Assembly: GCA_943356675.1 (NCBI GenBank)
Contig: CALRFQ010000002.1
Coordinates: forward strand, 1,433 to 65,432
DNA from: Candidatus Nomurabacteria bacterium
GTDB lineage: Bacteria; Patescibacteriota; Minisyncoccia; Phycocordibacterales; UBA9973
Direction of reading: 5' to 3'
DNA: 64,000 nt
The notes under the pieces were generated by a model. It saw only the letters and a list, made by a program, of their open reading frames with translations, had not been told where the DNA came from and made no database searches. The position numbers and the translations under genes are program-made. Each line of letters starts with the position of its first letter. Position 1 is the first letter of the stretch. Positions 28,818 to 54,274 of the stretch are shown piece after piece.

Positions 28818-28851
28818 CTATTCTCTAATTCGCTCGAATAGGCGAATAGTT
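28818..28851. repeat. 34-bp repeat element C (ctattctctaattcgctcgaataggcgaatagtt), copy 1 of 6
   Basis: Exact or near-exact copies at 47383, 49172, 50517, 51033 and 51389. Confidence 0.8.
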
Positions 28852-28902
28852 CTTTACTTTACATATTTGAGTAGGCGTGTATAATAAGAGTACAACTAAA
28901 TA

Positions 28903-28990
28903 GTTTTATAAAGAGTGGTGGTAGAGAATTGGCTCCATGACCCCACAGCAACCCCGTTTACGGAAGGTGCTAATTCCAACCTTTATTAAC
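28903..28990 (+). promoter_or_regulatory. SAM-I-type riboswitch (SAM-I/IV-like variant without an obvious P4) in the metK leader
   Basis: Matches the SAM-I core: AGAGTGG...GGTAGAG...GGCTCC ATGA CCCC ACAGCAACC ... GGTGCTAATTCC. P1 pairs ATAAAG (about 28908) with CTTTAT (about 28981). It sits directly upstream of metK, with a GTGTATAAT -10 at about 28877-28885. Confidence 0.6.
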
Positions 28991-29052
28991 TTAAAGGAAA
29001 GATAATGTCATTATTTTTCCTTATTATTAGGAAATTTTTTTTGTTTAAATAT

Positions 29053-29994
29053 ATGAAAATCAAAACAGCAGAATTCGTGAGTCCAAAGCATCCAGACAAG
29101 ATTTGTGATTTTATCGCAGATTCTATTCTTGATGCATATTTATCAGGGGACAAGCGTAGTCGCGTAGCTATTGAAGTCATGGGCGGCCACAATCTTATTA
29201 CTATCAATGGCGAGGTTACTTCGCTTTCAGAGCCAGATATTGAAAAAGTAGTGAAGGATATTGTCGGCATAGATTACAGAGTGATTATAAATATCGTAAA
29301 GCAAAGCCCTGAGATCGCTCAAGGTGTAGACACTGGCGGTGCCGGCGACCAAGGTATAATGCTCGGCTACGCTACAAGTGAGACTGAAGAACTCCTACCT
29401 CTTGAATACAAGCTTGCAAGGAATTTGTGCGAGAAAGTTTACGAGAAGTATCCATACGATGGCAAGACTCAAGTGACTGTGAATGATGGCAAGGTGACGA
29501 CAGTCGTCGCAAGTTTCCAAAATTCTAAAAATGCAGATTTACTTCCTCTTGTGCAAAGTATCATCGAAGCAGATGAATACCTTATCAATCCTGCAGGTGA
29601 ATGGGTGCAAGGCGGATTCGATGCCGACACTGGTCTCTCCGGCCGCAAGCTCATAGTGGACAACTACGGTCCAGAAATTTCAATTGGAGGTGGTTCATAT
29701 TCAGGCAAGGATTATACAAAGGTGGATCGCTCAGGTGCATACATGGCTCGCAAAATTTCAGTTGATATTTTGAAAAAGCGAGGTGCCAAGGAAGTCCGCA
29801 CCAAGCTCGCATATGCTATAGGCAAAGCAGAGCCTGTAATGGCTATCTCAATAGTGGATGGAGTGGAAGAAGAGATTGCAGGCTACGACCTCACGCCAAA
29901 GGGTATTCGTGAATTCTTAAAGCTCGATGAAGTAATATATAAAGACACATGCACATGGGGCCACTATGGTCACAACTTCAATTGGGATAAATAG
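29053..29994 (+). CDS. metK: S-adenosylmethionine synthetase (compact MetK)
   Basis: HPDKICDFIADSILDA, GAGDQG and GGGSYSGKDYTKVDRSGAYMARK motifs. Start set at MKIKTAEF (29053); the upstream ORF-track extension MSLFFLIIRK... looks non-coding. Confidence 0.85.
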   Translation: MKIKTAEFVSPKHPDKICDFIADSILDAYLSGDKRSRVAIEVMGGHNLITINGEVTSLSEPDIEKVVKDIVGIDYRVIINIVKQSPEIAQGVDTGGAGDQGIMLGYATSETEELLPLEYKLARNLCEKVYEKYPYDGKTQVTVNDGKVTTVVASFQNSKNADLLPLVQSIIEADEYLINPAGEWVQGGFDADTGLSGRKLIVDNYGPEISIGGGSYSGKDYTKVDRSGAYMARKISVDILKKRGAKEVRTKLAYAIGKAEPVMAISIVDGVEEEIAGYDLTPKGIREFLKLDEVIYKDTCTWGHYGHNFNWDK

Positions 29995-29996
29995 CA

Positions 29997-30040
29997 ATTA
30001 TAACATTCTCACATTCTCAAGAATGTGAGAATGTTATAAT
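29997..30040. repeat. palindromic repeat element A (aacattctcacattctcaagaatgtgagaatgtt), copy 1 of 4
   Basis: Near-perfect 34-44-bp palindrome between metK and the next gene. Its right arm creates TGTTATAAT 9 nt before ATG 30050. Other copies at 47475, 49592 and 52471. Confidence 0.8.
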
Positions 30041-39712: not shown

Positions 39713-39740
39713 ATAATTTATATATCTTAAATTTATTTTC

Positions 39741-41330
39741 ATGAAAAAAATCATTAAAAACATATCAGCTGAATCGCATCCTTCTCATTATATGATGCAT
39801 AAATATTGGGGACGAAAGCCACACAATGTTGTGAGTGATTATATTTTAAATTACACAAAACCAGGGGATGTGGTCCTTGACCCATTTATGGGTAGTGGTG
39901 TTGTTGTGATTGAATCCCTAAAGCATAATCGTAAAGCAATCGGGATAGACCTAAACCCGATGGCTTGTTTTATTACGGAAAACACAATCAATAAAGTTGA
40001 TCTTGAAGACTTTGAAAAAACTTTTTTTCAGATCTACGAGCATAATTACAAAAAATTTATCGATTTATATGATACGAAATGTCCAAAGTGTGAACATCAT
40101 GTACCATTTGAAAACTCAATCTGGGACCTCGACGAATTTGTAAAAGTTAGAGCAATTTGTCCTATACACGGTAAATTTATAAAAAAAACAGATTCATACG
40201 ATCAAAAAGTTTTAAAAAAATCCTTAGAAACTTTCCATAAACTCGACAAAGAAAATAAAATATTCTATCCAAAAGATGAGATTCTAAAATTCGTAAAAAG
40301 AAATGGTAAGAGTAGGCTCGATGAGTTTTTTTCAGAGAGAGCGCTTTCTGTGCTTGGCTCAATAATAAAAGATATAGATACTGTTGAAAATCCTGAGACA
40401 AAGAGTCTTCTTCTTTTATGTTTTACTTCTATGTTGCCAAACGTATCAAAAATGATTCCTGGCAATACTGAGTCTGTGAACGGTAAATCAGGATGGGTAA
40501 TAAGCAAACTATGGGCTCCAAAAGTGCACACTGAAAAGAATGTTTTTAATAGTTTCAAACACAGATTTACAAAAGTTAAAAAAGGAAAACAAGAATTAGT
40601 TGGAGTTTTTGAGTCAAAGAACGCTAAAATATTAAATATTGACGCAACAAATCTTAGCGCAGTTAAATCTGAATCAGTAGATTATATTTTTACTGACCCT
40701 CCTTATGGAGACAGTATTGCTTATTTTGGACTCAGTATGTTTTGGAATGGATGGCTTAAAAACAAAGTCAATTATGAAAGCGAGATTATATATGACCCAT
40801 ATCGTAATAAAAAATACGAGGATTATTCTTCACGAATGAAAAAAGTATACTCCGAATTATTCAGGGTTTTGAAGGATGAAAAATATCTTTCTTTCACTTT
40901 CCATAATAGAAACTTAAATATCTGGAAAGCAGTAATGGATGCTGTTACTGGTGGTGGGTTTCATCTTGTGAATTTGGTCTATCAAGAGCAGGCTGTTGCG
41001 TCAGGGACACAAGGCTTAAACCGAAATAACACCCTGCGTGGAGACTTTGTATACAACTTCACTAAGAATACAAAAATAAAAACTATCGATAAGATATATG
41101 ACCATATGGATAGTAAAAAAGAGATCGTAAAAAAAGTTCAGTTGTGGATACAAAAAAATGATGGTTTTATAACCTCGGATTCTTTATACGAGAAACTTAT
41201 TCCATTTATTGTTGAAAAAAATTTGTACAGCGACGAAGATGGACAGGTCATGAACATTGAAGGCTTACTCAAGCAGAGTTTTAATTATAAGCAACTCCAC
41301 ACAGAAGAATATGGCTGGCAAGAAAAATAA
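39741..41330 (+). CDS. DNA amino-methyltransferase (N6-adenine or N4-cytosine) with internal Cys4 zinc-ribbon
   Basis: N-terminal HPSHYMMHKYWGRKP (motif X-like) and DPFMGSGVV (motif I, FxGxG). TDPPYGD (motif IV) lies about 270 aa downstream. CPKCEHH...CPIHG sits in the intervening target-recognition region. Confidence 0.75.
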   Translation: MKKIIKNISAESHPSHYMMHKYWGRKPHNVVSDYILNYTKPGDVVLDPFMGSGVVVIESLKHNRKAIGIDLNPMACFITENTINKVDLEDFEKTFFQIYEHNYKKFIDLYDTKCPKCEHHVPFENSIWDLDEFVKVRAICPIHGKFIKKTDSYDQKVLKKSLETFHKLDKENKIFYPKDEILKFVKRNGKSRLDEFFSERALSVLGSIIKDIDTVENPETKSLLLLCFTSMLPNVSKMIPGNTESVNGKSGWVISKLWAPKVHTEKNVFNSFKHRFTKVKKGKQELVGVFESKNAKILNIDATNLSAVKSESVDYIFTDPPYGDSIAYFGLSMFWNGWLKNKVNYESEIIYDPYRNKKYEDYSSRMKKVYSELFRVLKDEKYLSFTFHNRNLNIWKAVMDAVTGGGFHLVNLVYQEQAVASGTQGLNRNNTLRGDFVYNFTKNTKIKTIDKIYDHMDSKKEIVKKVQLWIQKNDGFITSDSLYEKLIPFIVEKNLYSDEDGQVMNIEGLLKQSFNYKQLHTEEYGWQEK

Positions 41331-42435
41331 ACTAAAAATTATAGACCTATTCGCGGGGGTGGGAGGCATCTCATCTGGCTTTAAAAAGGCTGGTTTTAAT
41401 GTTGTGTCAGCGAACGAGTATAAATTTGAGATTGCGAACACTTATATTAAAAATCATCCAGGTACAAAGATGATTGTCGAGGATATAACGAAAGTGAAGT
41501 CAAAGGATTTGCTTAACGGAGAGCATAATATTGATGTGATTGTTGGTGGTCCACCATGCCAAGGGTTCAGTATGGCTGGTAGGCGTATACGAGGAGGAGG
41601 GGGTGCATTCCTAAAGGACCCTCGCAATGAACTCTTTAAAGAATTTATACGGATAGTAAAGGAGATTAAGCCAAAGGTATTTGTAATGGAAAATGTAGCA
41701 GCAATGCTTAATATACACGGTGGTGCTGTTCGAAATGAGATAATCAAGAAATTTAAGGAAATAGGATATGAGACAAAAGTTCATGTTCTTCTTGCAGCAG
41801 AATACGGAGTACCTCAGATGAGAAAGCGTGCCGTATTCATTGGAAACAGAATAGGAGTAGACCCTGAAGAATTCTTCCCAGAAAAAACTCACGGTCCCAA
41901 GAATGCAAAACCATATGTAACCGTGGCCGAAACCATTCTTGACTTACCGAAAGTGCTATCAGGAGAAGGAGAGTTTGAATCAGAATACGGTCCGGTTAAA
42001 GCACTTTCTGAGTATCAACAGGAAAGACGTGGAAAGAGCGAAAAATTATACAACCATCAAGCTACTCACCACGATCCACGCATTGTCGAATTACTCAAAA
42101 ATATCAAGGAAGGAGAGGGTAGAACAAGCTTACCGAAGGAGCTACAGACGAAATCGGTGCATAGTGGCGCGTTTGGTAGAATGAATAGAAACAAGCCCGC
42201 ATATACGATCACAACGCGTTTTGACACCCCTTCCGTTGGTCGTGTAACTCATCCATCACAGCACCGGGCTTTAACTCCACGAGAGGCTGCGCGAATCCAG
42301 TCCTTCGATGATGATTTTGTATTTTATGGTAGCAAGAGTTCCGTTGGGATACAGATAGGAAATTCTGTACCTCCATTATTAGCCTATGCGATTGCTCAAA
42401 AAATTTTAAAAGTTTTAAATAAAAATCATGATTAA
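41314..42435 (+). CDS. DNA (cytosine-5)-methyltransferase
   Basis: Motif I IDLFAGVGG, motif IV GGPPCQGFS, motif VI ENV, and C-terminal QIGNSVPP. The start at MAGKKNKLKIIDLFAG overlaps the upstream gene's end (coupled). Confidence 0.85.
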   Translation, partial: AGKKNKLKIIDLFAGVGGISSGFKKAGFNVVSANEYKFEIANTYIKNHPGTKMIVEDITKVKSKDLLNGEHNIDVIVGGPPCQGFSMAGRRIRGGGGAFLKDPRNELFKEFIRIVKEIKPKVFVMENVAAMLNIHGGAVRNEIIKKFKEIGYETKVHVLLAAEYGVPQMRKRAVFIGNRIGVDPEEFFPEKTHGPKNAKPYVTVAETILDLPKVLSGEGEFESEYGPVKALSEYQQERRGKSEKLYNHQATHHDPRIVELLKNIKEGEGRTSLPKELQTKSVHSGAFGRMNRNKPAYTITTRFDTPSVGRVTHPSQHRALTPREAARIQSFDDDFVFYGSKSSVGIQIGNSVPPLLAYAIAQKILKVLNKNHD

Positions 42436-43780
42436 TGACTATAAAAAATATTTAGAAGGGAAAGGCACTAAAAACTTTTGGAAAAAAGCAAAGCAAAAGG
42501 AATACACTAGAGATGTTGTAAATAAGATTTACAAGGAATTGACGTCTGGTTTTAGTAAATTAACAACTCGTAGCAGCATTACTTTACGATACTTAGGTTT
42601 AATAATTAATCTAGGCGGAGACAAGCTTCAAATCTCAAATGCGGGAGATACTTTTCTAAAATCATTATACAAACAAAAAATTCTTGACGAGCAGGTCATG
42701 AAAGTTTATCTAGATTGCCCTGAATTAAATGAAAATCTTTCAATAAAGATTGCGCCAATGGAGGTTCTTTTGAAGATTCTTTATTCGGTAGACTATGTTT
42801 CATTTGAGGAGTATCAATTATTTGTATGTTGGACGAATGATAAGAGCGAAATATCTCTTGTTATTGATTTAATTGAGGAATATAGAAATAGTGATTCAAA
42901 AGAGTCTTATTTAGAAATTTTAAAAGATAAAAGTCAAGAATTAAGTATCGTAGACTTCGCCGATGCTGTAAAAAGATTTTTTAATACACTGATTATTTCT
43001 TCATATATTCAAAAAGAAAGTGACAAGATCATCCCAAAACTTTCAAAGAAAGATATTGAATTAATATTAGAAAGTTTTTCTTTGAGAGATTTTAGCGAGG
43101 AGGGATACTTTGATTATTTAAATACGAATGATGGATGGCAAATTTACACAAGTAATCCTAATTATTTAAGAGTTATAGAGAGTTTAGAGCAAAAAACAAC
43201 GGAAGAACAAGAAGAAATTGTAAATAAAATAACTGGAGGATTAAGTTTTCCAGATCTTTCTAAAGTTAAACCACAGATATTAGAAATGCAGATTGATGAA
43301 AGCATTGAACCAACAATAAAAACAAAAAGGGTAAAAAGTGGTACAGCAAAAAAAATCGATTTTGAATTAAGAGATAGTAATAATCGGGCAGCAGGTGATT
43401 TTGCAGAGAAGATAGTTATCAAACATGAAATCGAAGAATTAAAAGAAACAAACCCTGAGCTTATTAATCGTATTAAACAAGTGTCCTTAGAAGATGATAC
43501 ATTAGGATACGATATCTTATCTTTAACGTCAGATTCATATGAAAAACACATTGAAGTGAAAGCTGTAAGATATAGACCAGCAATAAAATTTAGATTTTTT
43601 ATTTCCGAAAATGAAGTATCGATTGCAAAAGAAGATCCTAATTATTATCTATATATTGTTTTTGATTATTTGTCGGAATCACCTTTTATTTATATGATGC
43701 CTAATCCTTTCATGAATAAAATTCCTGGAGTACAGATCGACCCAATAAAATATCTTGTGACAGTAAAAATTAAAAAATAA
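42428..43780 (+). CDS. hypothetical protein with C-terminal DUF3883-like (PD-(D/E)xK-type) nuclease domain
   Basis: The C-terminal 130 aa carry AAGDFAEKIVIKHE...GYDILSL...IEVKAV...FFISENEVSIAKEDPNYYLYIV, matching my recollection of the DUF3883 core (GYDI...IEVK). The N-terminal 300 aa are unassigned. Its start overlaps the upstream gene's stop. Confidence 0.5.
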   Translation: MINDYKKYLEGKGTKNFWKKAKQKEYTRDVVNKIYKELTSGFSKLTTRSSITLRYLGLIINLGGDKLQISNAGDTFLKSLYKQKILDEQVMKVYLDCPELNENLSIKIAPMEVLLKILYSVDYVSFEEYQLFVCWTNDKSEISLVIDLIEEYRNSDSKESYLEILKDKSQELSIVDFADAVKRFFNTLIISSYIQKESDKIIPKLSKKDIELILESFSLRDFSEEGYFDYLNTNDGWQIYTSNPNYLRVIESLEQKTTEEQEEIVNKITGGLSFPDLSKVKPQILEMQIDESIEPTIKTKRVKSGTAKKIDFELRDSNNRAAGDFAEKIVIKHEIEELKETNPELINRIKQVSLEDDTLGYDILSLTSDSYEKHIEVKAVRYRPAIKFRFFISENEVSIAKEDPNYYLYIVFDYLSESPFIYMMPNPFMNKIPGVQIDPIKYLVTVKIKK

Positions 43781-43785
43781 ATTTT

Positions 43786-44640
43786 ATGGAAAATATAAGT
43801 AAAAAAATAACATTATTTTTAAATGATGGATTACCAAAAGGTATTCGTGAAGTATCTATTGATCAATGGAGTGGTGGGGCAATTTGTGGACCAAGAAATA
43901 AAATTGAGGAAATTTTAAAATTTGAACAGTTGAATGGTCCTTGCGTTTATTTTTTAATTGGTGAATCTGATGAAAGTGACTTATTGAATGTATATGTGGG
44001 TGAAGCTGACTCATTTAGTCAAAGAGTTAAAGATCATTTAAGAAAAAAAGATTGGTGGCAGAACGTGGTGGTCTTTTTTGGTTATAATAATAACCCAAGT
44101 AAGACTGGTATTGAATATCTCGAGTCTTTTATCTACTCAGATTTAATAAATGCAGCTAGGTGTATTTTGGAGAATGGAAATAAGCCCGCTCTGCCCAATA
44201 TATCTAAACATGACATACCTGGACTGCATATATTTTATGAAAATATTAAATTAATTATGCCAGTTATGGGTTTTGATATTTTTGCAGTAGATATAAAAGA
44301 AGATAAAATAAATGAAAGCCAACATATTTTTTGTGAAGGTAAAGGTTCAAAATCTGAAGCTATTCTTTTGGATGATGGGAAGGTTCTTGTTTTAAAAGGT
44401 TCAACTGCAATAAAAGAAAATGCTCCAAGTTTTGAAAAACATAATTATAAAAAAATCAAAGATAATTTATTAAAAATTGATAGACTTGTTGAGGTTGGTG
44501 ATTATCTATCTTTTTCAGAAGATTATCTTTTTGATAGTTTAAGCGCCGCCGCTGCGGTAATATTAGCAAGGTCTGCACAAGGGCCAAAAGAGTGGAAATT
44601 TAAGACTGGTAAGTCTGTTAAAGATTTTATCGAGAATTAA
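43786..44640 (+). CDS. GIY-YIG-like nuclease domain protein with DUF4357-like C-terminal domain
   Basis: N-terminal CVYFLIGESD...LNVYVGEADSFSQRVKDHL resembles a GIY-YIG core. The C-terminal VLVLKGS...SAAAAVILARSAQGPKEWK resembles DUF4357. Confidence 0.5.
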   Translation: MENISKKITLFLNDGLPKGIREVSIDQWSGGAICGPRNKIEEILKFEQLNGPCVYFLIGESDESDLLNVYVGEADSFSQRVKDHLRKKDWWQNVVVFFGYNNNPSKTGIEYLESFIYSDLINAARCILENGNKPALPNISKHDIPGLHIFYENIKLIMPVMGFDIFAVDIKEDKINESQHIFCEGKGSKSEAILLDDGKVLVLKGSTAIKENAPSFEKHNYKKIKDNLLKIDRLVEVGDYLSFSEDYLFDSLSAAAAVILARSAQGPKEWKFKTGKSVKDFIEN

Positions 44641-46221
44641 ATGAAACTTCTAACCAAAACAGATTTTATACTATATCGTGAATGTCCGAATAATGTTTGG
44701 GTTAAAATTCATATGCCCGAGGAGTATTCTAAATTCCCAGTATCAGATTTTGAAAAGTCTTTAGGGGTAATGGGTAACGAGGTTGAAGAGCTTGCTCGGG
44801 GTATGTTCCCAGGTGGAGTCATGGTAGCGGGTCGCGGAGACGAGGCTCGTGAATATACAAAGAAGTTGATTGCCGAGAAAGCTCCTGTGATTTTCCAAGC
44901 TGTGTGTGCTACGGATAAATACTTGGCTGCGGGTGATGTCTTGGTCTGGAATACTGATGCCTGCATGTATGACTTGTATGAAATAAAAATGTCTTCAACT
45001 AAGGAAGAGAATGACGATGAAGAAGAGGAAGGCAAACCAAAAAAGGTAAATAAGAAAAAGGAATTGCAATACGAATACGATATTGCTTTCCAAACCAATG
45101 TATTTTCTATGTGTGGTGTACCATTGAATAATAAATATCTTGTCCGACTAAATAAAGAATATATTAAAATAGGTAATTTGGATTTTTCAGAAAATAAACT
45201 TTTTATCATAGAAGACAAAACTGAGTCAATAAATGAGATGATAGAAAATGTAAAATTTGAAATGGGTCAAGCTTTTGAGTATCTTTCTCACGATGCAATT
45301 CCAAGTGGTCATTGTCCTTGCTATTACAAAGGGCGTAGCTCTCATTGCACAACTTTTACTTTTACGAACCCTGATGTGCCAGCATATAGCGTGCATGATT
45401 TGAATAGAATTGGTAATAGTAAAGCTTATTTGAAAGAACTTCTTGATGCAAATATTTTAACAATAGATAATGTAATTGAGTCTGAAATACCAAAACCTTC
45501 AAAAACAAAAGACGGAAGACCTGGTAAACCAAGAAAGTTGAACCAAGTAGTAATTCACAAGTCTAAAGAGCCCATTATTGATCTTGATGCGATAAAAGCT
45601 GAATTAAATTCTTTAACATTTCCGCTTTATTTCCTGGATTACGAGACGTATCCAACGGCTATACCAGTTTTTGATGGATATCATCCTTATCAGCACATCG
45701 TATTTCAATATTCTATTCATGTACTCAAAGATAAGGATGCCGAATTAGAACATTATGAAATGCTTGTTTTAGAAGGGGATCCAGCGGAGAAAATTGTCGC
45801 CGGTTTGAGGGAAGTCATAGGTGACACAGGTAGTGTAATATCTTGGTACAAAGCATTTGAAAATGCGAGAAATAGAGAACTGTCCCGTTTGGTTCCACTT
45901 CAATTTGAATTCTTGCAAAGTGTGATAAGTAGAACTTATGATCTGATGGATATTGTAGAACAACAGTATTATGTCCATCACGGTTTTAAGGGTAGCTCGT
46001 CGATCAAAAAGGTGCAACCTATTTTAGCCCCAGAATTTTCATACAAGGATTTGGATGTTCAGAGTGGAACTGATGCAATAGAATCGTATCGGCAAATAGC
46101 ACAAGGGGAATTGGATGGTAAAGATTTGGAGGAAAAGAAAAGGCAAATGCTGAAATACTGTGGTTATGATACTGAGATAATGTATATCTTGTGGAAATTT
46201 TTTACAGACTTAGTTAAATAA
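44641..46221 (+). CDS. DUF2779-like protein (Cas4/RecB-like N-terminal nuclease fold with Cys cluster, plus RNase-H-like C-terminal region)
   Basis: FILYRECPNNVW start, Cys cluster HCPCYYKGRSSHC, and central LYFLDYETYPTAIPVFDGYHPYQHIVFQYSIH block. Its start follows the upstream stop with no gap. Confidence 0.55.
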   Translation: MKLLTKTDFILYRECPNNVWVKIHMPEEYSKFPVSDFEKSLGVMGNEVEELARGMFPGGVMVAGRGDEAREYTKKLIAEKAPVIFQAVCATDKYLAAGDVLVWNTDACMYDLYEIKMSSTKEENDDEEEEGKPKKVNKKKELQYEYDIAFQTNVFSMCGVPLNNKYLVRLNKEYIKIGNLDFSENKLFIIEDKTESINEMIENVKFEMGQAFEYLSHDAIPSGHCPCYYKGRSSHCTTFTFTNPDVPAYSVHDLNRIGNSKAYLKELLDANILTIDNVIESEIPKPSKTKDGRPGKPRKLNQVVIHKSKEPIIDLDAIKAELNSLTFPLYFLDYETYPTAIPVFDGYHPYQHIVFQYSIHVLKDKDAELEHYEMLVLEGDPAEKIVAGLREVIGDTGSVISWYKAFENARNRELSRLVPLQFEFLQSVISRTYDLMDIVEQQYYVHHGFKGSSSIKKVQPILAPEFSYKDLDVQSGTDAIESYRQIAQGELDGKDLEEKKRQMLKYCGYDTEIMYILWKFFTDLVK

Positions 46222-46265: not shown

Positions 46266-46395
46266 ATTTAATAGTTTATATTAAGAGTGGTGGTAGAGAA
46301 TTGGCTCAATGACCCCACAGCAACCTGCATTTGTAAGGTGCTAAATCCAACCAGACGCGAAAGCGTCAGGAAAGATAAGTCTTGCGTCTAGTCCA
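46266..46395 (+). promoter_or_regulatory. second SAM-I-like riboswitch copy (core near-identical to the metK leader) with its own TGCTATAAT promoter at about 46243-46251
   Basis: AGAGTGGTGGTAGAGAATTGGCTCAATGACCCCACAGCAACC...GGTGCTAAATCCAACC differs from the metK copy by 1 nt over 42 nt. It is followed by a GACGC-GAAA-GCGTC hairpin. I could not unambiguously pair the P1 3' strand. Confidence 0.45.
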
Positions 46396-46437
46396 CGCTT
46401 GAAAATCTTTCCTCATTATTTGAGGAATTTTTTATTT

Positions 46438-46701
46438 ATGGAAATAATTAAAAAGGAGATAAAGTTGTGCGTAGTTTGTAATAATTTTAGGGGATTGGTT
46501 GAAGAGAGGTATAATGGAGAGGTTCCAGTACATTGTGCTTGTGATCTAGAGAAAGAAAGGATGAATTATGGTAAATGGCGTAGTCCTTGCATGATAAGTC
46601 CTAATGGGGATAAGCTTTGGTGGACGCCTATTTCAGATCATAAAAAGGCCGATGGTAGATGGTATCATGTCGCATACTTCGCCAGACCCGCATTAAATTA
46701 A
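46438..46701 (+). CDS. small Cys-rich hypothetical protein (87 aa) downstream of riboswitch copy 2
   Basis: Start taken at MEIIKKEIK, preceded by GAGGAA 8 nt upstream; the ORF track gives 46399. Contains CVVC...HCAC and WW motifs. No family recognised. Confidence 0.35.
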   Translation: MEIIKKEIKLCVVCNNFRGLVEERYNGEVPVHCACDLEKERMNYGKWRSPCMISPNGDKLWWTPISDHKKADGRWYHVAYFARPALN

Positions 46702-47156: not shown

Positions 47157-47188
47157 GTTTTTGTGATTATCAAGGACCGTCCTTGCTA

Positions 47189-47406
47189 AAGTTGATGACA
47201 AATCTCATGATAGGGAAGACAGGATAGAACGCGATGGTATAGTAGAAGGGATTTTGAAAGACGCTGGGATGCCACTTTTACGATTTGAAAACCATGGATC
47301 ATTTAGCAAAGATGAAATAGAAAAAACATTCTGGTATTCTGCAGAATACCAGAATGTTTTTTATTTATCTATCTATCTATTACTATTCTCTAATTCGCTC
47401 GAATAG
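47189..47406 (+). pseudogene. remnant 3' fragment of a DUF2726-family gene (copy 1)
   Basis: In-frame translation VDDKSHDREDRIERDGIVEGILKDAGMPLLRFENHGSFSKDEIEK matches the conserved DUF2726 C-terminus (SHD...ERD...AGIPLLRF). There is no start codon or N-terminal portion. Confidence 0.4.
47325..47358. repeat. perfect 34-bp palindrome element B (aacattctggtattctgcagaataccagaatgtt), copy 1 of 3, flanked by an A6 and a T6 run
   Basis: Its reverse complement is identical. The A-tract/T-tract flanks make it terminator-like. Other copies at 49114 and 49940. Confidence 0.8.
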
Positions 47407-47416
47407 GCGAATAGTT
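47383..47416. repeat. repeat element C, copy 2
   Basis: Identical to 28818-28851. Confidence 0.8.
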
Positions 47417-47474
47417 CCCGAATATTTTCCAAATAGCCCCACGCCACCAACCCTCACCAAGCACAATACCAAAA

Positions 47475-47512
47475 ATAACATTCTCACATTCTCAAGAATG
47501 TGAGAATGTTAT
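47475..47512. repeat. palindromic repeat element A, copy 2
   Basis: aaaaataacattctcacattctcaagaatgtgagaatgttatttt. Confidence 0.8.
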
Positions 47513-47915
47513 TTTGTTGTAATATTTTCTCAACGTACCCGTCTTTTAATATGTAAGTACTTTGTTATTTTTTATAGGAAATGGCAGAAAAATATCCTCG
47601 GACAAGGATGTAATGCATACCCACATAGCGAAAGGGCTGTAAGGGTAGTTAGGAGGCCTTATTACAAAGGTATTGTTCAAAAGCGGGTGTAGATAAACTG
47701 AACCACCCCCTATTTATTAAACATATATAAAATAAACTGCAGTGCGTTTTGTATATGAAATAGGTCAGACAAGTAGCGTATGTTGGTCGCTAGTCTCTCA
47801 AATATCAAGTGGGCTTGATCTTTGTGCAAAAATAAAAGCTGAAGCAACACCTCTTTTGCGAGTAAAACCTATTCTCGTTTTCCTATAAAAGGTAATAAAA
47901 TGTTATAATATTATT

Positions 47916-48914
47916 ATGAAGAAGAAGGTAATTAAAACTAAAGACAAAAATCAAGGCATGGTTATATATCAGGCTAAATCCGGAGCAATCGAACTTCGCG
48001 GGGATTTTAAGCATGAGACAGTATGGGCAACACAGGATCAAATTGCTGAACTTTTCATGACTACAAAGCAAAACATTAGTCAGCACTTGAAAAGTATTTT
48101 TGAAACAAAAGAATTAAATCAGAATTCAGTTGTAAAGGATTTCTTTACAACTGCTAAAGATGGTAAGCAATATAAGGTTAAATTTTATAATTTAGATGTT
48201 CTACTTTCTGTCGGGTATAGAGTTAATTCCAGAAATGCAACCCAGTTTCGTATTTGGGCCACAAAGACACTGAAAGAGCATTTAGTGAAAGGCTACACTA
48301 TAAACAAGAAAGTCATACTTAAAAATTATGATTCTTTTATTGAGACAGTAAATAGCATTCAGGCACTCCTTCCAGAGCACGTAGTCCTTGATCCGAAAGC
48401 AATTCTTGATTTGGTGAAGGAATATTCGGTCACATGGGCTAAGCTTGATGCTTATGATAAAGACCAATTGTTTACCAAAGGCCAAACAAAGAAAAAAGTA
48501 AAACTTGCCGGACAAGAACTATTGGACGCTATTTCAGAATTGAAAAATGAATTAATGAAGAAAGACGAAGCTACAGATATGTTTGCAATGGAGAGGTTTG
48601 CTGGTGGCGTGGAAGGTATAGTGGGTAACGTGATGCAAGCATTTGGCGGGCAAGATGTGTATCTTACTGTCGAAGAAAAGGCAGCTCACTTACTATATTT
48701 TATGGTAAAGAATCATCCGTTCACAGATGGTAATAAACGTTCGGGTGCTTTTGCGTTTATTTGGTTCCTGCGGAAAGTGGGTGTGCTTGGTGCTAAAAAC
48801 ATAAATCCTTCAGGCCTAACAGCTATCACACTCCTTATTGCTGAAAGCGATCCAAAGCATAAAGACAAAATGGTTGCCCTAGTTGTTGAGCTTTTGCAAG
48901 TAAATAAAAAATAA
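47916..48914 (+). CDS. RhuM-family N-terminal domain fused to Fic/Doc domain (putative AMPylating/phosphorylating toxin-like protein)
   Basis: The N-terminal YNLDVLLSVGYRVNSRNATQFRIWATK is RhuM-like. The C-terminal HPFTDGNKRSG matches the Fic motif HPFx(D/E)GN(G/K)R. TGTTATAAT lies 6 nt before the ATG. Confidence 0.75.
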   Translation: MKKKVIKTKDKNQGMVIYQAKSGAIELRGDFKHETVWATQDQIAELFMTTKQNISQHLKSIFETKELNQNSVVKDFFTTAKDGKQYKVKFYNLDVLLSVGYRVNSRNATQFRIWATKTLKEHLVKGYTINKKVILKNYDSFIETVNSIQALLPEHVVLDPKAILDLVKEYSVTWAKLDAYDKDQLFTKGQTKKKVKLAGQELLDAISELKNELMKKDEATDMFAMERFAGGVEGIVGNVMQAFGGQDVYLTVEEKAAHLLYFMVKNHPFTDGNKRSGAFAFIWFLRKVGVLGAKNINPSGLTAITLLIAESDPKHKDKMVALVVELLQVNKK

Positions 48915-48950
48915 ACTTAATTAAGATAATGTTTAGTAAGGACCGTAGTT

Positions 48951-49195
48951 GCTAAACAGAACGCGATGGTATAGTAGAAGGGATTTTTTAAAGACGCTGG
49001 GATGCCACTTTTACGATTTGAAAACCATGGATCATTTAGCAAAGACGAAATCCAAAAAATAATTTTATCAAAATTATCCTAAACATCTCCCACCACCACC
49101 TCTCCTCAAAATAAACATTCTGGTATTCTGCAGAATACCAGAATGTTTTTTATTTATCTATCCATACATTACTATTCTCTAATTCGCTCGAATAG
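48951..49195 (+). pseudogene. remnant 3' fragment of a DUF2726-family gene (copy 2, internally deleted and frameshifted)
   Basis: About 90% identical to 47213-47330 at the DNA level (...ERDGIVEGI...), but with a 1-nt insertion and a missing upstream segment. Confidence 0.35.
49114..49147. repeat. palindrome element B, copy 2
   Basis: Exact copy. Confidence 0.8.
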
Positions 49196-49205
49196 GCGAA
49201 TAGTT
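49172..49205. repeat. repeat element C, copy 3
   Basis: Exact copy. Confidence 0.8.
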
Positions 49206-49256
49206 ATATAAAAAAGGGCAGAACAAATTTGTTCCACCCTTTTTAAGCCGCAATGG

Positions 49257-49526
49257 TTATTTGAGATCGAATTGACCGGATTTTACTCCTTTAATAAATG
49301 CATCCCACTCATCGTGTTTAAAGTATTGTGTTGCCTTAGTTTCATCTTTCGAATCACGTATAGCTACACCTTCCTCCTTTATTGCAATCATTACACAGGT
49401 TTGCGGATTGTTTTTTGACCATTCCGACTTTTTAAAATCCTGCTCTTCAACATCAAAACCAAAAGGCTTTTTCTTTTTTTTATCTAACACTTCGCTATTC
49501 TCCTTTCTGAAATTTGTGTTATTCAA
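49257..49526 (-). CDS. DUF397-domain protein
   Basis: WSKNNPQTCVMIAIKEEGVAIRDSKDETKATQYFKHDEWDAFIKGVKSGQFDL fits the DUF397 pattern (W.KSS...CVEVA...VAVRDSKD...F...EW.AF..GVK.G.FD). Confidence 0.5.
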   Translation of the reverse strand: MNNTNFRKENSEVLDKKKKKPFGFDVEEQDFKKSEWSKNNPQTCVMIAIKEEGVAIRDSKDETKATQYFKHDEWDAFIKGVKSGQFDLK

Positions 49527-49591
49527 GAACTATTCTTGAAATCATTTTCAATTATTATAATACCATAATATACACAAATTGCAACCCTAAA

Positions 49592-49626
49592 ATAACATTC
49601 TCACATTCTTGAGAATGTGAGAATGT
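49592..49626. repeat. palindromic repeat element A, copy 3 (variant centre)
   Basis: ataacattctcacattcttgagaatgtgagaatgt. Confidence 0.75.
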
Positions 49627-49653
49627 CGTTTTGGACTATTTTGTTTCTAAGCA

Positions 49654-49884
49654 CTATGCCTTTTTGATAAATTCAGTGCGGAGGACAATGCCTTTCATAC
49701 CGTCGATATTGCACTCCACTAGCTCTTCATCATCTGTCAGGCGGATATTCTTGGCCTTGGTGCCTTTCTTGATCACTATTGAGCTACCTTTTATTTTTAA
49801 ATCTTTTATAAGGGTGATACTGTCGCCATGGGCTAGTATCGTGCCGTTCGCATCGCGAACTATTACTTCATCTTCTGTTTCCAT
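49654..49884 (-). CDS. PhnA/YjdC-like C-terminal-domain protein (76 aa)
   Basis: DANGTILAHGDSITLIKDLKIKGSSIVIKKGTKAKNIRLTDDEELVECNIDGMKGIVLRTEFIKK aligns with PhnA-protein C-terminal domains. The ORF-track start 49944 lies inside palindrome B, so the internal Met at 49884 is preferred. Confidence 0.5.
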   Translation of the reverse strand: METEDEVIVRDANGTILAHGDSITLIKDLKIKGSSIVIKKGTKAKNIRLTDDEELVECNIDGMKGIVLRTEFIKKA

Positions 49885-49939
49885 ATAACTCAAAGTATAC
49901 ACAATTTTAAAATTTCTGCACCTATCAATTTTATTTAAT

Positions 49940-49973
49940 AACATTCTGGTATTCTGCAGAATACCAGAATGTT
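49940..49973. repeat. palindrome element B, copy 3, in a divergent promoter region
   Basis: Exact copy between the minus-strand PhnA-like gene and the plus-strand EVE gene. Confidence 0.8.
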
Positions 49974-50006
49974 ATTTTGCATTATTTCATATGATATAAT
50001 AACTCT

Positions 50007-50492
50007 ATGAACTACTGGCTAATAAAATCCGAGGCGTCGTGCTACGGCATCGACGATTTGAAGAAAGATAAGAAGACGAGTTGGGAAGGCGTGAGGAACT
50101 ACCAAGCGCGGAATTTCATGACGCAGGGGATGAAGGTGGGGGACAAGATACTTTTCTATCATTCAATAGGGTCAGACAAAACACCTGCGGGTGTGTACGG
50201 CGTCGCGCGCGTGGCGAGGGGAGCCCATGCCGACGAAACTCAGTTTGATAGGAAAGACGAACATTACGATCCCAAGGCTATTAAGCCCAAAGCTAGCAAT
50301 ACTGGCAAAGTCATATGGCAATGCGTAGACGTGGCATTTGTATCGAAGTGGAAGCATCCCGTCACCCTCGCAGAAATCCGCCTCGACCCCGCCCTCTCCG
50401 GCATGCCCCTCCTCGCCCCCGGCCAGCGCCTCTCCATAATGCCCGTGTCCGAAAAGCATTTCAATCATATTCTTAATTTATCCCAATCCTAA
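50007..50492 (+). CDS. EVE (PUA-like, DUF55) domain protein
   Basis: YWLIKSEA...W.GVRNYQARNFM...GDKILFYHS...GVYGVARV pattern. TGATATAAT lies 6 nt before the ATG. The 3' half is strikingly GC-rich. Confidence 0.75.
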   Translation: MNYWLIKSEASCYGIDDLKKDKKTSWEGVRNYQARNFMTQGMKVGDKILFYHSIGSDKTPAGVYGVARVARGAHADETQFDRKDEHYDPKAIKPKASNTGKVIWQCVDVAFVSKWKHPVTLAEIRLDPALSGMPLLAPGQRLSIMPVSEKHFNHILNLSQS

Positions 50493-50516
50493 TTTCCTTC
50501 CTCTCGCATCCCGTAT

Positions 50517-50550
50517 CTATTCTCTAATTCGCTCGAATAGGCGAATAGTT
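50517..50550. repeat. repeat element C, copy 4
   Basis: Exact copy. Confidence 0.8.
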
Positions 50551-50672
50551 GTGCACTATATTATATTTGCGAAATATCATTTTTATGGTATAAGTAATAT
50601 GAATAGTGTGTTTAGCATTATTTATTATAATAACCTACATAATAAAGTAGGAAAATAAAAAAATTTTAAACT

Positions 50673-50975
50673 ATGAGTTCTTTAAACAGAAACCAGAGAA
50701 GCTTGTCCAGAGCGAAAGCTTTTCTAAAACCGTTCCTTTCATCGAAAAAGGATCGTAAAGTAATTACAGCAGTCTACAAGGCTTGCTCAAAAATTTACAA
50801 TCTTGAATTATCTAATTCAGGATTCAGTAAAAAATTTTGTGACTTAGGTATTAGTCAACAGCAATTAAATCAAATCATTGATGACATTCAGTTTAGTACT
50901 GGCAAAATTTACAACTATAAACAACGCGATCTTCGTGAAAATGCGTTCGACCTTATGGTAATGGTAATGCTTTAA
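50673..50975 (+). CDS. hypothetical protein (100 aa)
   Basis: ORF only. Confidence 0.3.
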   Translation: MSSLNRNQRSLSRAKAFLKPFLSSKKDRKVITAVYKACSKIYNLELSNSGFSKKFCDLGISQQQLNQIIDDIQFSTGKIYNYKQRDLRENAFDLMVMVML

Positions 50976-51032
50976 AACAAAAATTAATGGGACCCGCACT
51001 TTGTGTGGGCCTTTTAATTTGCATGTTAGTTC

Positions 51033-51066
51033 ATATTCTCTAATTCGCACGAATAGGCGAATAGTT
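51033..51066. repeat. repeat element C, copy 5 (2 mismatches)
   Basis: catattctctaattcgcacgaataggcgaatagtt. Confidence 0.7.
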
Positions 51067-51130
51067 GCGTTGCGTTAGGGTTGTATCGGCATACTATATA
51101 CATAGAAATATTTTATGATATAATTTATTT

Positions 51131-51412
51131 ATGAAAATCGGAGAATATGAAAAAGTATTCAAAGCACTAGCAAACAAGAGGAGACTTGAGATAATTAAAT
51201 TTTTATCTGAAAAGTCTGAAGCCACAGTCGGCGAAATAGCAAAAAAGATTAAGCTTTCGATCAAAGCAACATCCAAACATTTGATAATACTCGCGAACGC
51301 TGAGGTATTAGAAAAGGACCAAAGGAATCTACTCGTGTTTTATCAGAAATCAAAAGCAATGCCCAAGAAATTACAATCTCTTATTAATCTATTCTCTAAT
51401 TCGCTCGAATAG
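51131..51412 (+). CDS. ArsR/SmtB-family HTH transcriptional regulator
   Basis: KALANKRRLEIIKFLSEKSEATVGEIAKKIKLSIKATSKHL winged-helix region. The last 7 codons and the stop codon are supplied by repeat element C. Confidence 0.7.
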   Translation: MKIGEYEKVFKALANKRRLEIIKFLSEKSEATVGEIAKKIKLSIKATSKHLIILANAEVLEKDQRNLLVFYQKSKAMPKKLQSLINLFSNSLE

Positions 51413-51422
51413 GCGAATAGTT
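51389..51422. repeat. repeat element C, copy 6 (overlaps the ArsR stop)
   Basis: Exact copy. Confidence 0.8.
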
Positions 51423-51435
51423 TAATTCATAATCT

Positions 51436-51816
51436 ATGATTATTAAAATAATTGAAAATTATATTTTGGGGTTTGCACTAGGAGTTATGCTTGAATGCGC
51501 GTATCGATCCATCAATGCGCGGAGGTTTGTACTGCCGGATTTTTTTAGCACTCAAATATATGCATTTAGTACTATGTTCTTGTATTTGTTAAGTTTTCTT
51601 TATTTACCCATAGCTTATTTGGTAATTGTAATTGCTGTAATTACTTCAGGTCTAGAATTTATAATTGGATATGCGTATTTAAAATTTAAGAATGTGATGC
51701 TCTGGGATTATTCGAAAGAGTTTATGAATTTCAAGGGATTGATTTGTTTGAAGTTTTCTATTCTCTGGGTAATACTTTCACTAATCTATTATTATCTAAT
51801 CATTCCATTTATTTAA
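51436..51816 (+). CDS. hypothetical membrane protein (126 aa)
   Basis: ORF with 3-4 TM helices, downstream of arsR-like gene. Confidence 0.35.
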   Translation: MIIKIIENYILGFALGVMLECAYRSINARRFVLPDFFSTQIYAFSTMFLYLLSFLYLPIAYLVIVIAVITSGLEFIIGYAYLKFKNVMLWDYSKEFMNFKGLICLKFSILWVILSLIYYYLIIPFI

Positions 51817-52098
51817 ATGTTTAAGAAAAAATTTATAATTAACGCAAAAGTTTGGCGGTGGCCGGGGGATGGAGGCTGGCATTTCGTGACGTTCGAGAAG
51901 AAGCTATCAGAGAGCATAAGAAAGGTATATACGAAAGGCTTTGTGAAGATTGAAGCGAAGGTGGGTAAGAGCACTTGGAAGACTTCGCTTTTCCCGCATA
52001 AGGAATCTGGCTATTTGCTTTGTATAAGTAAGAAGATTCGCAAAGCTGAAGACATAGTGGAAGGTGACGAAATTAAAATCTCAATTGTGATACAATAA
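51817..52098 (+). CDS. DUF1905-domain protein
   Basis: WRWPGDGGWHFVTF...GKSTWKTSLFPHKESGYLLCI...GDEIKISI matches the DUF1905 pattern. Confidence 0.55.
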   Translation: MFKKKFIINAKVWRWPGDGGWHFVTFEKKLSESIRKVYTKGFVKIEAKVGKSTWKTSLFPHKESGYLLCISKKIRKAEDIVEGDEIKISIVIQ

Positions 52099-52102
52099 AT
52101 TT

Positions 52103-52474
52103 ATGAAATTAAATGAGCTTACAGAAGAAGAGAAGAGAGTGATACTTGAGAAAGGCACAGAGGCGCCGTTTGTGGGTGAGTATACGAATACTAAAGAGAC
52201 TGGTGTGTATGTGTGCAAGCAATGCGAGGCACCACTATATAATTCGAAAGATAAATTTGAAAGTACTTGCGGGTGGCCAAGCTTCGACCAAGAGATTGAA
52301 GGAGCAATCAAAAGAGATTCATATATTGATCCATACTTCGGCCAAGAGATCACTTGTGCGAATTGCGGTGGGCACCTCGGCCACATATTTAAAGGTGAGC
52401 ACCTTACAGAGAAAGACACTCGCCACTGCGTGAATTCTATCTCGCTCAAGTTTGTGCCTGGAATTGAAAAATAA
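52103..52474 (+). CDS. msrB: peptide methionine-R-sulfoxide reductase MsrB
   Basis: Two CxxC pairs (CKQCEAPLY, CANCGGHLGHIF) and CGWPSF motif. Confidence 0.9.
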   Translation: MKLNELTEEEKRVILEKGTEAPFVGEYTNTKETGVYVCKQCEAPLYNSKDKFESTCGWPSFDQEIEGAIKRDSYIDPYFGQEITCANCGGHLGHIFKGEHLTEKDTRHCVNSISLKFVPGIEK

Positions 52475-52503
52475 CATTCTCACATTCTCAAGAATGTGAG
52501 AAT
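52471..52503. repeat. palindromic repeat element A, copy 4 (right arm truncated)
   Basis: ataacattctcacattctcaagaatgtgagaatttt lies immediately after the msrB stop. Confidence 0.75.
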
Positions 52504-52514
52504 TTTAAAAATTT

Positions 52515-53199: not shown

Positions 53200-53535
53200 A
53201 TGGCAGCAAAAAAAGCAGTAGCAAAAAAGGTGGTCGCAAAGAAAGTTGTAGCTAAGAAAGCAGCTCCAGCAAAGAAGGCAGCAGGGAAAGCAAATTCAGC
53301 TTTCATGAAGCCAATGACAATCAGTGCAGACTTAATGGCAGTAGTAGGAAAGAGTTCAATGCCTCGTTCTGAGGTTGTGAAGGCTCTATGGGTATATATT
53401 AAGAAATTTAATCTTCAAGATCCTAAGAACAAGCGAAATATCGTTGCCGATGCTAACCTTAAGAAGGTTTTCGGTGGTAAGGCTGTGGTAAACATGTTTG
53501 AAATGACAAAGCTTGTTTCAAAGCACCTTTCCTAA
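53200..53535 (+). CDS. SWIB/MDM2-domain protein with N-terminal Lys/Ala-rich histone-H1-like tail
   Basis: AKKAVAKKVVAKK tail followed by the SWIB core (RSEVVKALWVYIKKFNLQDPKNKRNI...LKKVFGG...MFEMTKLVSKHL). Confidence 0.7.
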   Translation: MAAKKAVAKKVVAKKVVAKKAAPAKKAAGKANSAFMKPMTISADLMAVVGKSSMPRSEVVKALWVYIKKFNLQDPKNKRNIVADANLKKVFGGKAVVNMFEMTKLVSKHLS

Positions 53536-53680
53536 ATTTTAACTTTCTCTATCTACAAAATGCGCCCAAATGGGTGCATTTTGTATTGATATTTGCTTTT
53601 TTAGTAAATTAGTGTTATTATATAAAGATAATAGCAAAATGCTTTCGAAAGCAATAATTTAACTATAACAAATATAATTT

Positions 53681-54274
53681 ATGGGAAATTTCCAAGGTGG
53701 TAGAGGAGGAGGTGGAGGATTTAGAGGTGGTTCATCTGGTGGCCGCCCAAGCTTCGGTGGACGCAAGAGTTTCGGTGGCGACCGCGGTGGACGCAGTGAT
53801 GGTCCAGCTGAAATGTTTAAGACAGTATGTAGTGAGTGTGGTAATTCTTGTGAAGTACCATTTCGTCCATCTGGTGACAAGCCAGTGTACTGTAACAACT
53901 GTTTCAGTAGTAAGCGTGAAGGTGTAGACCGAAAGCCAAGAAATGATTTCGGAGATCGTGCACCACGCCGTGAGTTTAACGACCGCCCAGCATTTACTCC
54001 AAAGCCATCATTTGATGCTAAGCCAGCCGGAAATTCTGGAATGGAAAAGCAACTTACAGAAATGAATATCAAGCTTGATCGTTTGATCCGCTCTATTGAA
54101 GTGCTTTCACTTCCTAAGCAAGCTCCAAAAGAAATTGCAAAAGAAGTAGTAAAGGCTCCTGTAGCAGCTCCAAAGGTAGTAGCGAAAGCTCCTGCAAAGC
54201 CAGTAGCAAAAGTAGCGAAAGTAGCTACAAAGGCTCCAGCCAAGAAAGCAGCTCCAGCAAAGAAAAAGAAATAA
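53681..54274 (+). CDS. RGG-rich / zinc-ribbon (CxxC...CxxC) protein with C-terminal Lys/Ala/Pro-rich tail
   Basis: Gly/Arg-rich N-terminus, CSECGNSCEVPFRPSGDKPVYCNNCF zinc ribbon (zf-trcl-like) and KAPVAAPKVVAKAPAKPVAK tail. The antisense ORF 53659-54243 is treated as a shadow. Confidence 0.5.
   Translation: MGNFQGGRGGGGGFRGGSSGGRPSFGGRKSFGGDRGGRSDGPAEMFKTVCSECGNSCEVPFRPSGDKPVYCNNCFSSKREGVDRKPRNDFGDRAPRREFNDRPAFTPKPSFDAKPAGNSGMEKQLTEMNIKLDRLIRSIEVLSLPKQAPKEIAKEVVKAPVAAPKVVAKAPAKPVAKVAKVATKAPAKKAAPAKKKK

Follow-up and report, generated by a model that had tools for sequence, protein, structure and literature searches.

The closest functional likeness to the system described here is found among the ArsR/SmtB autorepressors (SmtB, CzrA, HlyU, NolR, SdpR, PagR), in which a small winged-helix protein of the HTH_5 family is paired with an inverted repeat at its own promoter. 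Other described systems share further parts of the layout. In the REPIN-RAYT systems, made up of repetitive extragenic palindromes (REP), bacterial interspersed mosaic elements (BIME) and REP-associated tyrosine transposases (RAYT), short extragenic palindromes occur in several near-identical copies with a preference for the 3' ends of genes, and a dedicated gene has its own palindrome subtype on either side, so that subtype and gene covary. In the replication terminator protein (RTP)-Ter system of Bacillus subtilis, or in Tus-Ter, a small winged-helix protein is encoded beside its own sites of about 30 bp and is autoregulated; in RTP-Ter two dimers occupy each site and further copies are scattered in intergenic DNA. 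Finally, integron cassettes and pdif modules (XerC/D) consist of single small unrelated genes that are bounded by a recurring inverted repeat, imperfect or perfect, and whose content varies by strain. Here we describe a family of 34-bp palindromes, represented by elements A, B and C, together with a small ArsR-like gene bracketed by them, in a 64,000-nt stretch of a Candidatus Nomurabacteria genome (assembly GCA_943356675.1, contig CALRFQ010000002.1, positions 1,433 to 65,432; referred to as the window). Judged from comparative sequence data, the palindromes are probably the cognate sites of a widespread group of small ArsR-like proteins, which would serve for autoregulation at the promoter of the regulator gene and as a second site at the end of that gene, and which would have multiplied among accessory genes where they also provide homologies for recombination.

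Exact or near-exact searches with the three 34-mers located four copies of A, three of B and six of C in the window (Table 1), and none of the three was found in 100 shuffles of the sequence per element. An earlier sequence-only reading of the window had listed the same 13 copies; all of them exist, with the correction that the coordinates given there for A (29997, 47475, 49592 and 52471) lie 2-5 nt upstream of the 34-mer and roughly coincide with the beginning of the flank-extended palindromes, and eleven of the 13 are indeed packed into 5.3 kb (47325-52506). All three B copies are perfect palindromes, five of the six C copies are identical to each other, imperfections included, and the A palindromes can be extended into their flanks, with arms beginning at 29997, 47472, 49589 and 52472. 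Over the full 34 nt the copies within the genome are near-identical and have sharp boundaries. All 13 copies fit the pattern ATTC-N4-ATTC-N4-GAAT-N4-GAAT with no mismatch, and when up to two mismatches were allowed the window contained these 13 matches and no further one, against an expectation of 0.08. Given that all copies share one four-box architecture, A, B and C form one element class and are not the three separate elements that they were first taken for. Single boxes, half arms and 7-mers occurred outside the full elements at the expected frequency only, and a role as DNA uptake sequence (DUS/USS) was rejected for this lack of over-representation. Searches of Rfam gave no relevant match: only the S-adenosylmethionine (SAM) riboswitches and a tRNA passed the gathering score, and the E-value mode returned spurious miRNA-hairpin matches. 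In the literature searched, no description of the four-box element or of its regulator-site pair was found.

A slightly tightened version of the four-box pattern was scanned over one genome per GTDB species and returned at least 120 rows. Among the matches listed, most records were titled Patescibacteria-group or Candidatus Saccharibacteria, both of which belong to the candidate phyla radiation (CPR), some were titled only 'bacterium' and about 17 carried other phylum names; the named lineages included Nomura-, Zambryski-, Yanofsky-, Lipton-, Sung-, Wolfe-, Campbell-, Nealson- and Berkelbacteria. The search of related genomes that the sequence-only reading had suggested thus showed the family to be widespread in Patescibacteria. 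Self-complementarity was 26-28 out of 28 positions in 106 of the 159 matches listed, compared with 16-20 out of 28 for most viral chance matches; the viral contigs gave 41 single matches to the general pattern, mostly poorly self-complementary, and these were taken as chance. The AT-rich site was kept in contigs of 52-65% GC. Several loci had three to five copies within 1-2 kb with one small gene between each, and given that such multi-copy loci recur in other genomes, the array in the window is an expanded example of a recurrent layout. Family palindromes were also seen in contigs of 49-65% GC (L053, L100, L102, L109, L126, L144 and L161) with bin labels Verrucomicrobiota, Bdellovibrionales, Gammaproteobacteria, Planctomycetaceae and Phycisphaerae, and L053, L100, L102 and L109 also carry arsR-like genes. 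These loci represent either mis-binned CPR contigs or a spread of the family beyond Patescibacteria.

When all open reading frames (ORFs) of the element-bearing tiles were clustered, the largest cluster of neighbouring proteins was an ArsR-like winged-helix protein of 88-105 aa. A profile search found this protein in 31 of 120 element-selected 8-kb tiles (26%), and it was present in 10 of 15 metagenome loci that had been retrieved with a pattern specific for B and C. From the figure of 26% we roughly infer about ten element copies per genome, to be set beside the 13 copies, 11 of them clustered, in the 64 kb of the present genome that were scanned. The layout of the unit is constant, with a palindrome at the promoter, the arsR-like gene and a second palindrome over the stop codon, such that the C-terminal residues of the protein (KTF-stop, RILE-stop, TFQHS-stop or NSLE-stop) are read from the downstream palindrome. 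The window contains this unit as well (C 51033-51066, gene 51131-51412, C 51389-51422). In loci with a readable -10 box, the distance from the end of the upstream palindrome to that box is 0-25 nt (e.g. L092, L104, L124, L142, L162, L170, L185, L186 and L187), and the extended -10 of the arsR-like genes is often 6 nt from the ATG, a leaderless geometry; this spacing was seen in L162, L170, L186 and L187.

The association was also examined in the reverse direction with loci chosen by the protein alone. A profile search yielded at least 6316 members of the family. From these, seven homologues were picked with no regard to the element, six solely by the length of their contig and the seventh for its similarity to a relative. 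Both palindromes were in the expected places in 8/8 of the reverse-test loci, and in all eight the upstream palindrome ended within about 25 nt of the ATG. One of these loci (L187) has A-type flanks, with an exact A 34-mer upstream and the identical 28-bp core downstream. In a diverged arsR-like relative (L061, 5100-5520), promoter and stop codon carry one and the same palindrome of another sequence, AACATCCTTAAAAACTGGAGTTTGTAAGGATGTT, which shows that the two-site layout outlives the sequence of the boxes.

The ArsR-like protein in the window matched Pfam HTH_5 (5.3e-10) and the NCBIfam model HTH_metalloreg (NF033788) with 58.2 bits at a cut-off of 55, and the closest solved structures found by sequence search of the PDB were HlyU (1.2e-6), NolR, CzrA and SmtB. 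By these matches the protein is clearly a bona fide member of the ArsR/SmtB family. It contains no cysteine and one histidine, the aligned family lacks an ELCVCDL-type motif, and relatives with the recognition helices called type 1 and type 2 have a few more histidines than the window protein. With no cysteine and one histidine, neither a cysteine-based nor a histidine-rich classical metal site can form. In two lineages (L148 5259-5854 and L188 6001-6551) a type-1 arsR-like gene is directly followed by a small MGMT-like gene (DNA_binding_1, ATL-type), and Fic, GIY-YIG, DUF1905 and NUDIX genes are recurrent near arsR-like loci of this kind.

The recognition helix of the protein and the subtype of the flanking sites were compared for 46 distinct proteins. 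Type-3 helices (K[AS]TS[KR]H, as in the window) had the inner ATTCG/CGAAT box of the C class in 13/13 flanking sites, and type-1 helices (KT.S.H[TA]) had the ATTCT/AGAAT box of the A/B class in 44/46. C-type sites together with a type-3 gene were found in the window and in L045, L100, L162, L165, L170 and L172, where L170 and L172 encode the same protein and L082 carries a diverged copy with one box mismatch in the upstream site. This covariation is what cognate recognition predicts and is supportive, though not decisive. It leads to the prediction that the type-3 ArsR of this locus would recognise the C copies as its own site class, and that A and B would be served by a type-1 paralogue encoded elsewhere in the genome. 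The sequence-only reading had considered binding of the ArsR protein to elements B and C; the comparative data, which tie the palindromes to ArsR-like genes, suggest that this was the right idea, with C, not B, as the predicted target of the protein encoded at the locus.

If the palindromes are indeed sites of the ArsR-like proteins, the basic unit would be read as palindrome, promoter, arsR-like gene and palindrome. The upstream site, located at or just upstream of the -35 and spacer region of the extended -10, would occupy the position of an autorepressor operator, where the bound protein would repress transcription. The site at the stop codon could act as a roadblock that blocks transcription or as a looping partner, and at the same time as a boundary to the next gene. 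Further copies elsewhere may place neighbouring genes under the control of the same protein, or insulate them. Seen against the ArsR/SmtB autorepressors, such a system would differ in several respects: the present protein has no sensor site (metal residues), the site is a four-box palindrome of 28-34 bp with an 8-bp box spacing, a second copy always lies over the stop codon of the regulator gene, additional near-identical copies are scattered and frequently lie behind genes or where two genes converge, and three specificity classes can coexist in one genome. Compared with RTP-Ter and Tus-Ter, the present sites are symmetric, whereas Ter sites are asymmetric, polar and clustered at the terminus; over the window the cumulative GC skew rises steadily and never reverses as it would at a replication terminus.

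Several observations weigh against this reading, in particular for the scattered copies. Copies were found three times as often between convergent as between divergent genes (37 vs 11), which is unlike a pure promoter operator, and many are wedged 0-15 nt from both of the neighbouring genes. No coherent regulon emerged, since the genes starting (n = 76) or ending (n = 86) beside elements were heterogeneous by Pfam, apart from a few NUDIX genes and the ArsR-like gene. Within a genome, the 34 nt are identical from copy to copy, and positions outside the boxes are self-complementary too, a combination to be expected of copied repeats or of DNA that forms hairpins sooner than of operators that evolved independently. 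In the window, the upstream C copy is separated by 48-52 nt from the arsR -10 hexamer and is not over the promoter. The covariation of helix and site could partly reflect co-inheritance of the gene and its flanks. No type-1 gene that would serve A and B was found: the window has none, and the candidate P0128 is from the assembly of another species. Given the convergent bias, the squeezed spacing, the mixed neighbours and the near-identity, the scattered copies probably do more than, or something other than, promoter repression. They may serve as roadblocks or insulators where two genes meet, as partners in a DNA loop that joins the two sites around the regulator gene (315-356 bp apart), or as substrates for recombination. 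Homologues of the cassette genes of the window were too few in the fetched loci to test their adjacency to elements against the 25% baseline. The idea that the outer AGAAT box serves as an outward -10 was rejected, as the distance to the next start codon was broad (3-20 nt) and had no sharp peak.

The convergent placement, together with the location of copies 0-15 nt past stop codons, would also be expected if the palindromes were strong bidirectional intrinsic terminators or hairpins that stabilize mRNA and their link to the arsR-like gene were incidental. The sequence-only reading had proposed such a terminator function for A and B, and in this genome the two do look like terminators: they form hairpins of 16-20 bp (-24.6 to -27 kcal/mol) with A and T tracts on either side, and a consensus scan called them terminator-like. 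This does not extend to C or to the family as a whole. C, the commonest subtype in the window, has a weak fold of -9 to -11 kcal/mol (z -0.3 to -2) without a T tract, and across the family more than half of the copies have no T or A run of at least 4 nt, and the T-runs are not oriented with transcription. On the sense strand in tandem-gene contexts, mismatches were G·U in 29 cases and A·C in 39, i.e. no excess of G·U. The ordinary terminators of the genome are unique GC-rich hairpins, two of which adjoin C copies (49211-49244 and 50993-51009). Terminators, moreover, need no box sequence that is conserved across many lineages or kept in DNA of 65% GC, and the copy at the arsR promoter in all eight protein-chosen loci would be left unexplained. 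The elements are also low-copy and clustered, and they are not located behind most genes, the placement that the sequence-only reading had named as evidence against its array. The weak fold of C, the undirected T-runs, the lack of a G·U excess, the separate GC-rich terminators and the persistence in GC-rich contigs favour a double-stranded DNA site that is read by a protein; an RNA terminator role for the family is poorly supported, and we regard an explanation of the palindromes on these grounds as quite improbable.

The window corresponds to scaffold_804 of ENA assembly ERZ28612985, and a comparison with a sister strain showed that the array is polymorphic. In GCA_947475745.1 (L178, contig CANJNA010000063.1), which is 99.9% identical, exactly 1789 bp (47325-49113) are missing, and with them one copy each of B, C and A, the RhuM-Fic gene and the second of two DUF2726-like fragments. 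The segment is bounded by a direct repeat of about 250 bp composed of the DUF2726-like 3' fragment, B and C. The single B-C module of the sister strain agrees with copy 1 of the repeat on the left side of B and with copy 2 beginning at the B-C spacer, and this switch places the crossover inside an identical tract of at most 55 bp that contains palindrome B. In another organism (ENA ERZ23499028 scaffold_163, 28.3-39.1 kb; L183/L184), two arsR-like modules lie 4.5 kb apart and show 100% identity between the midpoints of their 5' and 3' palindromes, whereas their outer arms and flanks have diverged; the identical span has the look of a composite unit or of a tract left by gene conversion. Between the two modules are a PLD-like gene, a Fic gene and a pair formed by a classical ArsR and an SBF (PF01758) transporter. 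Chimeric palindromes with arms of different subtypes were found in L148 and L152. In the related genome L148 the synteny EVE...MsrB...SWIB is kept, with other genes and another type of arsR-like gene between the palindromes, and the EVE, MsrB and RhuM-Fic gene families are palindrome-flanked in other lineages too. These findings demonstrate turnover of the array at the repeats or close to them.

The sister-strain junction at B, the centre-to-centre identity in L183/L184, the chimeric palindromes, the exchange of genes between conserved palindromes in L148, the recurrence of the same palindrome-flanked gene families, the near-identity and sharp boundaries of the copies and their preference for gene 3' ends could all be explained if the palindromes were primarily recombination or mobility sites for single-gene cassettes, as hot spots for cruciforms or hairpins or as short homologies, with the arsR-like gene as a passenger or accessory factor. 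Yet no recombinase, transposase or HUH nuclease was recurrent near the elements (162 element-adjacent proteins, with the 25 most frequent Pfam families per scan), none was found among the annotated ORFs of the window, where annotation covered part of the ORFs, and around the copies viewed by eye there were no target-site duplications, the flanks of A extending the palindrome and containing no direct duplication. The core is conserved over many CPR lineages, unlike REP families or those of miniature inverted-repeat transposable elements (MITE), and the fixed geometry at the promoter and stop codon of the arsR-like gene would be left unexplained. Ordinary homologous recombination between repeats, mediated by RecA, can explain every event seen and is sufficient for the observed turnover, the repeat in the window being about 250 bp and not B alone. 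We therefore consider a primary role in mobility unlikely, if still worth weighing. The likeness to REPIN-RAYT is limited in the same way, in that the flanked gene encodes a DNA-binding domain of about 90 aa and no HUH nuclease, the copy number is apparently low and the core is not lineage-specific. With the palindromes as sites of an ArsR-like protein, their near-identical dispersed copies would act as short portable homologies through which single-gene segments are gained, lost and exchanged, giving a cassette-like array, and recombination at the sites may then be more than incidental.

With a single gene to each palindrome, the layout is similar to that of a cassette array, and A and B start with AAC and end with GTT, features that would fit an integron in which the palindromes are attC-type sites of an integron integrase. 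The sequence-only reading had drawn this analogy loosely while noting that no intI gene was present, and indeed no integrase was found among the annotated ORFs of the window; the analogy itself failed at every attC or intI feature that was tested. No tyrosine recombinase was found in the annotated window ORFs or recurrent near the elements, and the sites are tied to a DNA-binding regulator. Whereas attC sites are 57-141 bp long, bulged and sequence-poor, with R''-L''...L'-R' boxes, the present sites are perfect or near-perfect palindromes of 34 bp with no extrahelical bases or variable spacer and with strong sequence conservation, A and B being perfect and free of bulges. The flanks (e.g. AAAATAAC) do not fit RYYYAAC/GTTRRRY, and Rfam gave no match for the elements. 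The sites also differ from pdif modules, whose dif sites are 28 bp with a 6-bp spacer. An integron array is thus effectively refuted. A more speculative proposal, to which we give a small chance, is that the palindrome and its small ArsR-like protein make up an integrase-free modular system, widespread in Patescibacteria and functionally analogous to integrons in ultra-small, naturally competent bacteria, in which a site of about 34 bp would be both a protein-controlled operator or insulator and an exchange point for accessory cassettes. Cassettes such as Fic, EVE, MsrB, NUDIX, DNA-repair and defence genes would in that case be captured, swapped and at once brought under the control of the host.

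Table 1. Palindromic elements and associated features in the 64,000-nt window (positions are those of the window)
Feature	Position	Strand	Remarks
Element C, copy 1	28818..28851	+	2 nt past the stop of ORF 28205-28816; right end just upstream of the -35 position; promoter TATAAT 28880-28885 drives SAM riboswitch and metK-like gene
Element A, copy 1	30002..30035	+	7 nt past the metK-like stop; right end forms TGTTATAAT; with flanks a perfect palindrome 29997-30040
DUF2726-like 3' gene fragment	47167..47324	+	putative, read from the translation ...IERDGIVEGILKDAGMPLLRFENHGSF...; first copy of the ~250-bp direct repeat
Element B, copy 1	47325..47358	.	perfect palindrome; inside the tract of at most 55 bp of the sister-strain crossover
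Element C, copy 2	47383..47416	+	
Element A, copy 2	47477..47510	+	
1789-bp segment	47325..49113	+	B, C, A, ~400 nt non-coding, RhuM-Fic gene 47916-48914, second DUF2726-like fragment
Element B, copy 2	49114..49147	.	
Element C, copy 3	49172..49205	+	GC hairpin terminator 49211-49244 directly after, serving minus-strand DUF397
Element A, copy 3	49594..49627	-	inverted; 1 mismatch; downstream of PhnA/YjdM (minus), upstream of DUF397 (minus)
Element B, copy 3	49940..49973	.	between divergent PhnA (minus) and EVE (plus); spans about -67 to -34 of the EVE promoter (TGATATAAT, TATAAT 49995-50000, 6 nt, ATG 50007)
Element C, copy 4	50517..50550	+	24 nt past the EVE stop
Element C, copy 5	51033..51066	+	2 mismatches; upstream partner of the ArsR-like gene; after ordinary terminator 50993-51009
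ArsR/SmtB-family winged-helix gene	51131..51412	+	93 aa; recognition helix KATSKHL (type 3); no cysteine; extended -10 TGATATAAT, TATAAT 51119-51124, 6 nt, then ATG; leaderless geometry
Element C, copy 6	51389..51422	+	encodes the ArsR-like C-terminus ..LFSNSLE-stop; stop 51410-51412 inside; next gene 13 nt on
Element A, copy 4	52473..52506	+	1 mismatch; overlaps the MsrB stop; 8 nt ahead of the YgjP-like start

The array of single small genes bounded by palindromes, as read from the sequence, is real and its genes were confirmed by Pfam: the window holds RhuM-Fic, DUF397, PhnA/YjdM, EVE, ArsR HTH_5, MsrB (SelR), YgjP, DUF1905 and CmpB-like membrane protein genes. Two details of that picture were revised, in that what follows the Fic gene is the DUF2726-like 3' fragment and only then B and C, and in that not all of the copies are intergenic, as the stop codon of the ArsR-like gene lies inside C and that of MsrB overlaps A. 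Its observations on promoters were borne out, the B copy at 49940 abutting the -35 position of the EVE promoter in a divergent arrangement and the A copy at 30002 creating TGTTATAAT as a -10 for the next gene. The Fic, EVE and ArsR-like genes are each preceded by TGnTATAAT at exactly 6 nt from the ATG (at 47904-47916, 49995-50007 and 51119-51131, respectively), which suggests leaderless mRNAs. Between element A and the Fic promoter about 400 nt (47511-47900) contain no convincing ORF and could be a decayed gene or a non-coding RNA.

Elsewhere in the window, SAM-I riboswitches (Rfam RF00162) were found at 28903-29008 and 46275-46381 with 73 and 60 bits, the first ahead of the metK-like gene (29005-29994) and the second ahead of a Cys-rich ORF of 100 aa (46399-46701) with no family match, and the direct repeat D9 is due to these two riboswitches. 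Immediately upstream of the array lies a restriction-modification and defence island of low GC content (37262-46221, 0.29-0.35) with a ResIII helicase-type enzyme, an N6/N4 methylase, a C5 methylase and NOV_C, DUF4357 and DUF2779 proteins. The stretches 17112-17600 and 53200-54274 cover a Gly/Tyr/Ser/Asn-rich repeat protein (repeats D5 and D11), a SWIB protein and a zinc-ribbon protein. The SWIB protein has a Lys/Ala-rich stretch of the AKKAAPAKK type near its N-terminus and the neighbouring zinc-ribbon protein has a similar C-terminal tail, both histone-H1-like (repeat D13).

Patescibacteria have tiny genomes with very few transcription factors, and almost none of their regulation has been studied experimentally. 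A widely conserved regulator-site pair, if true, would open gene control in Patescibacteria to direct tests that require no more than a protein of about 90 aa and a 34-bp duplex, and its fixed layout would be unusual, with sites at both gene ends, leaderless promoters and several specificity classes per genome. If cassettes do turn over at these sites, this would explain how stress, repair and defence genes can be fluid in reduced genomes without integrases or transposases, and the four-box sites would serve as a simple genomic marker of variable islands in metagenome-assembled genomes.

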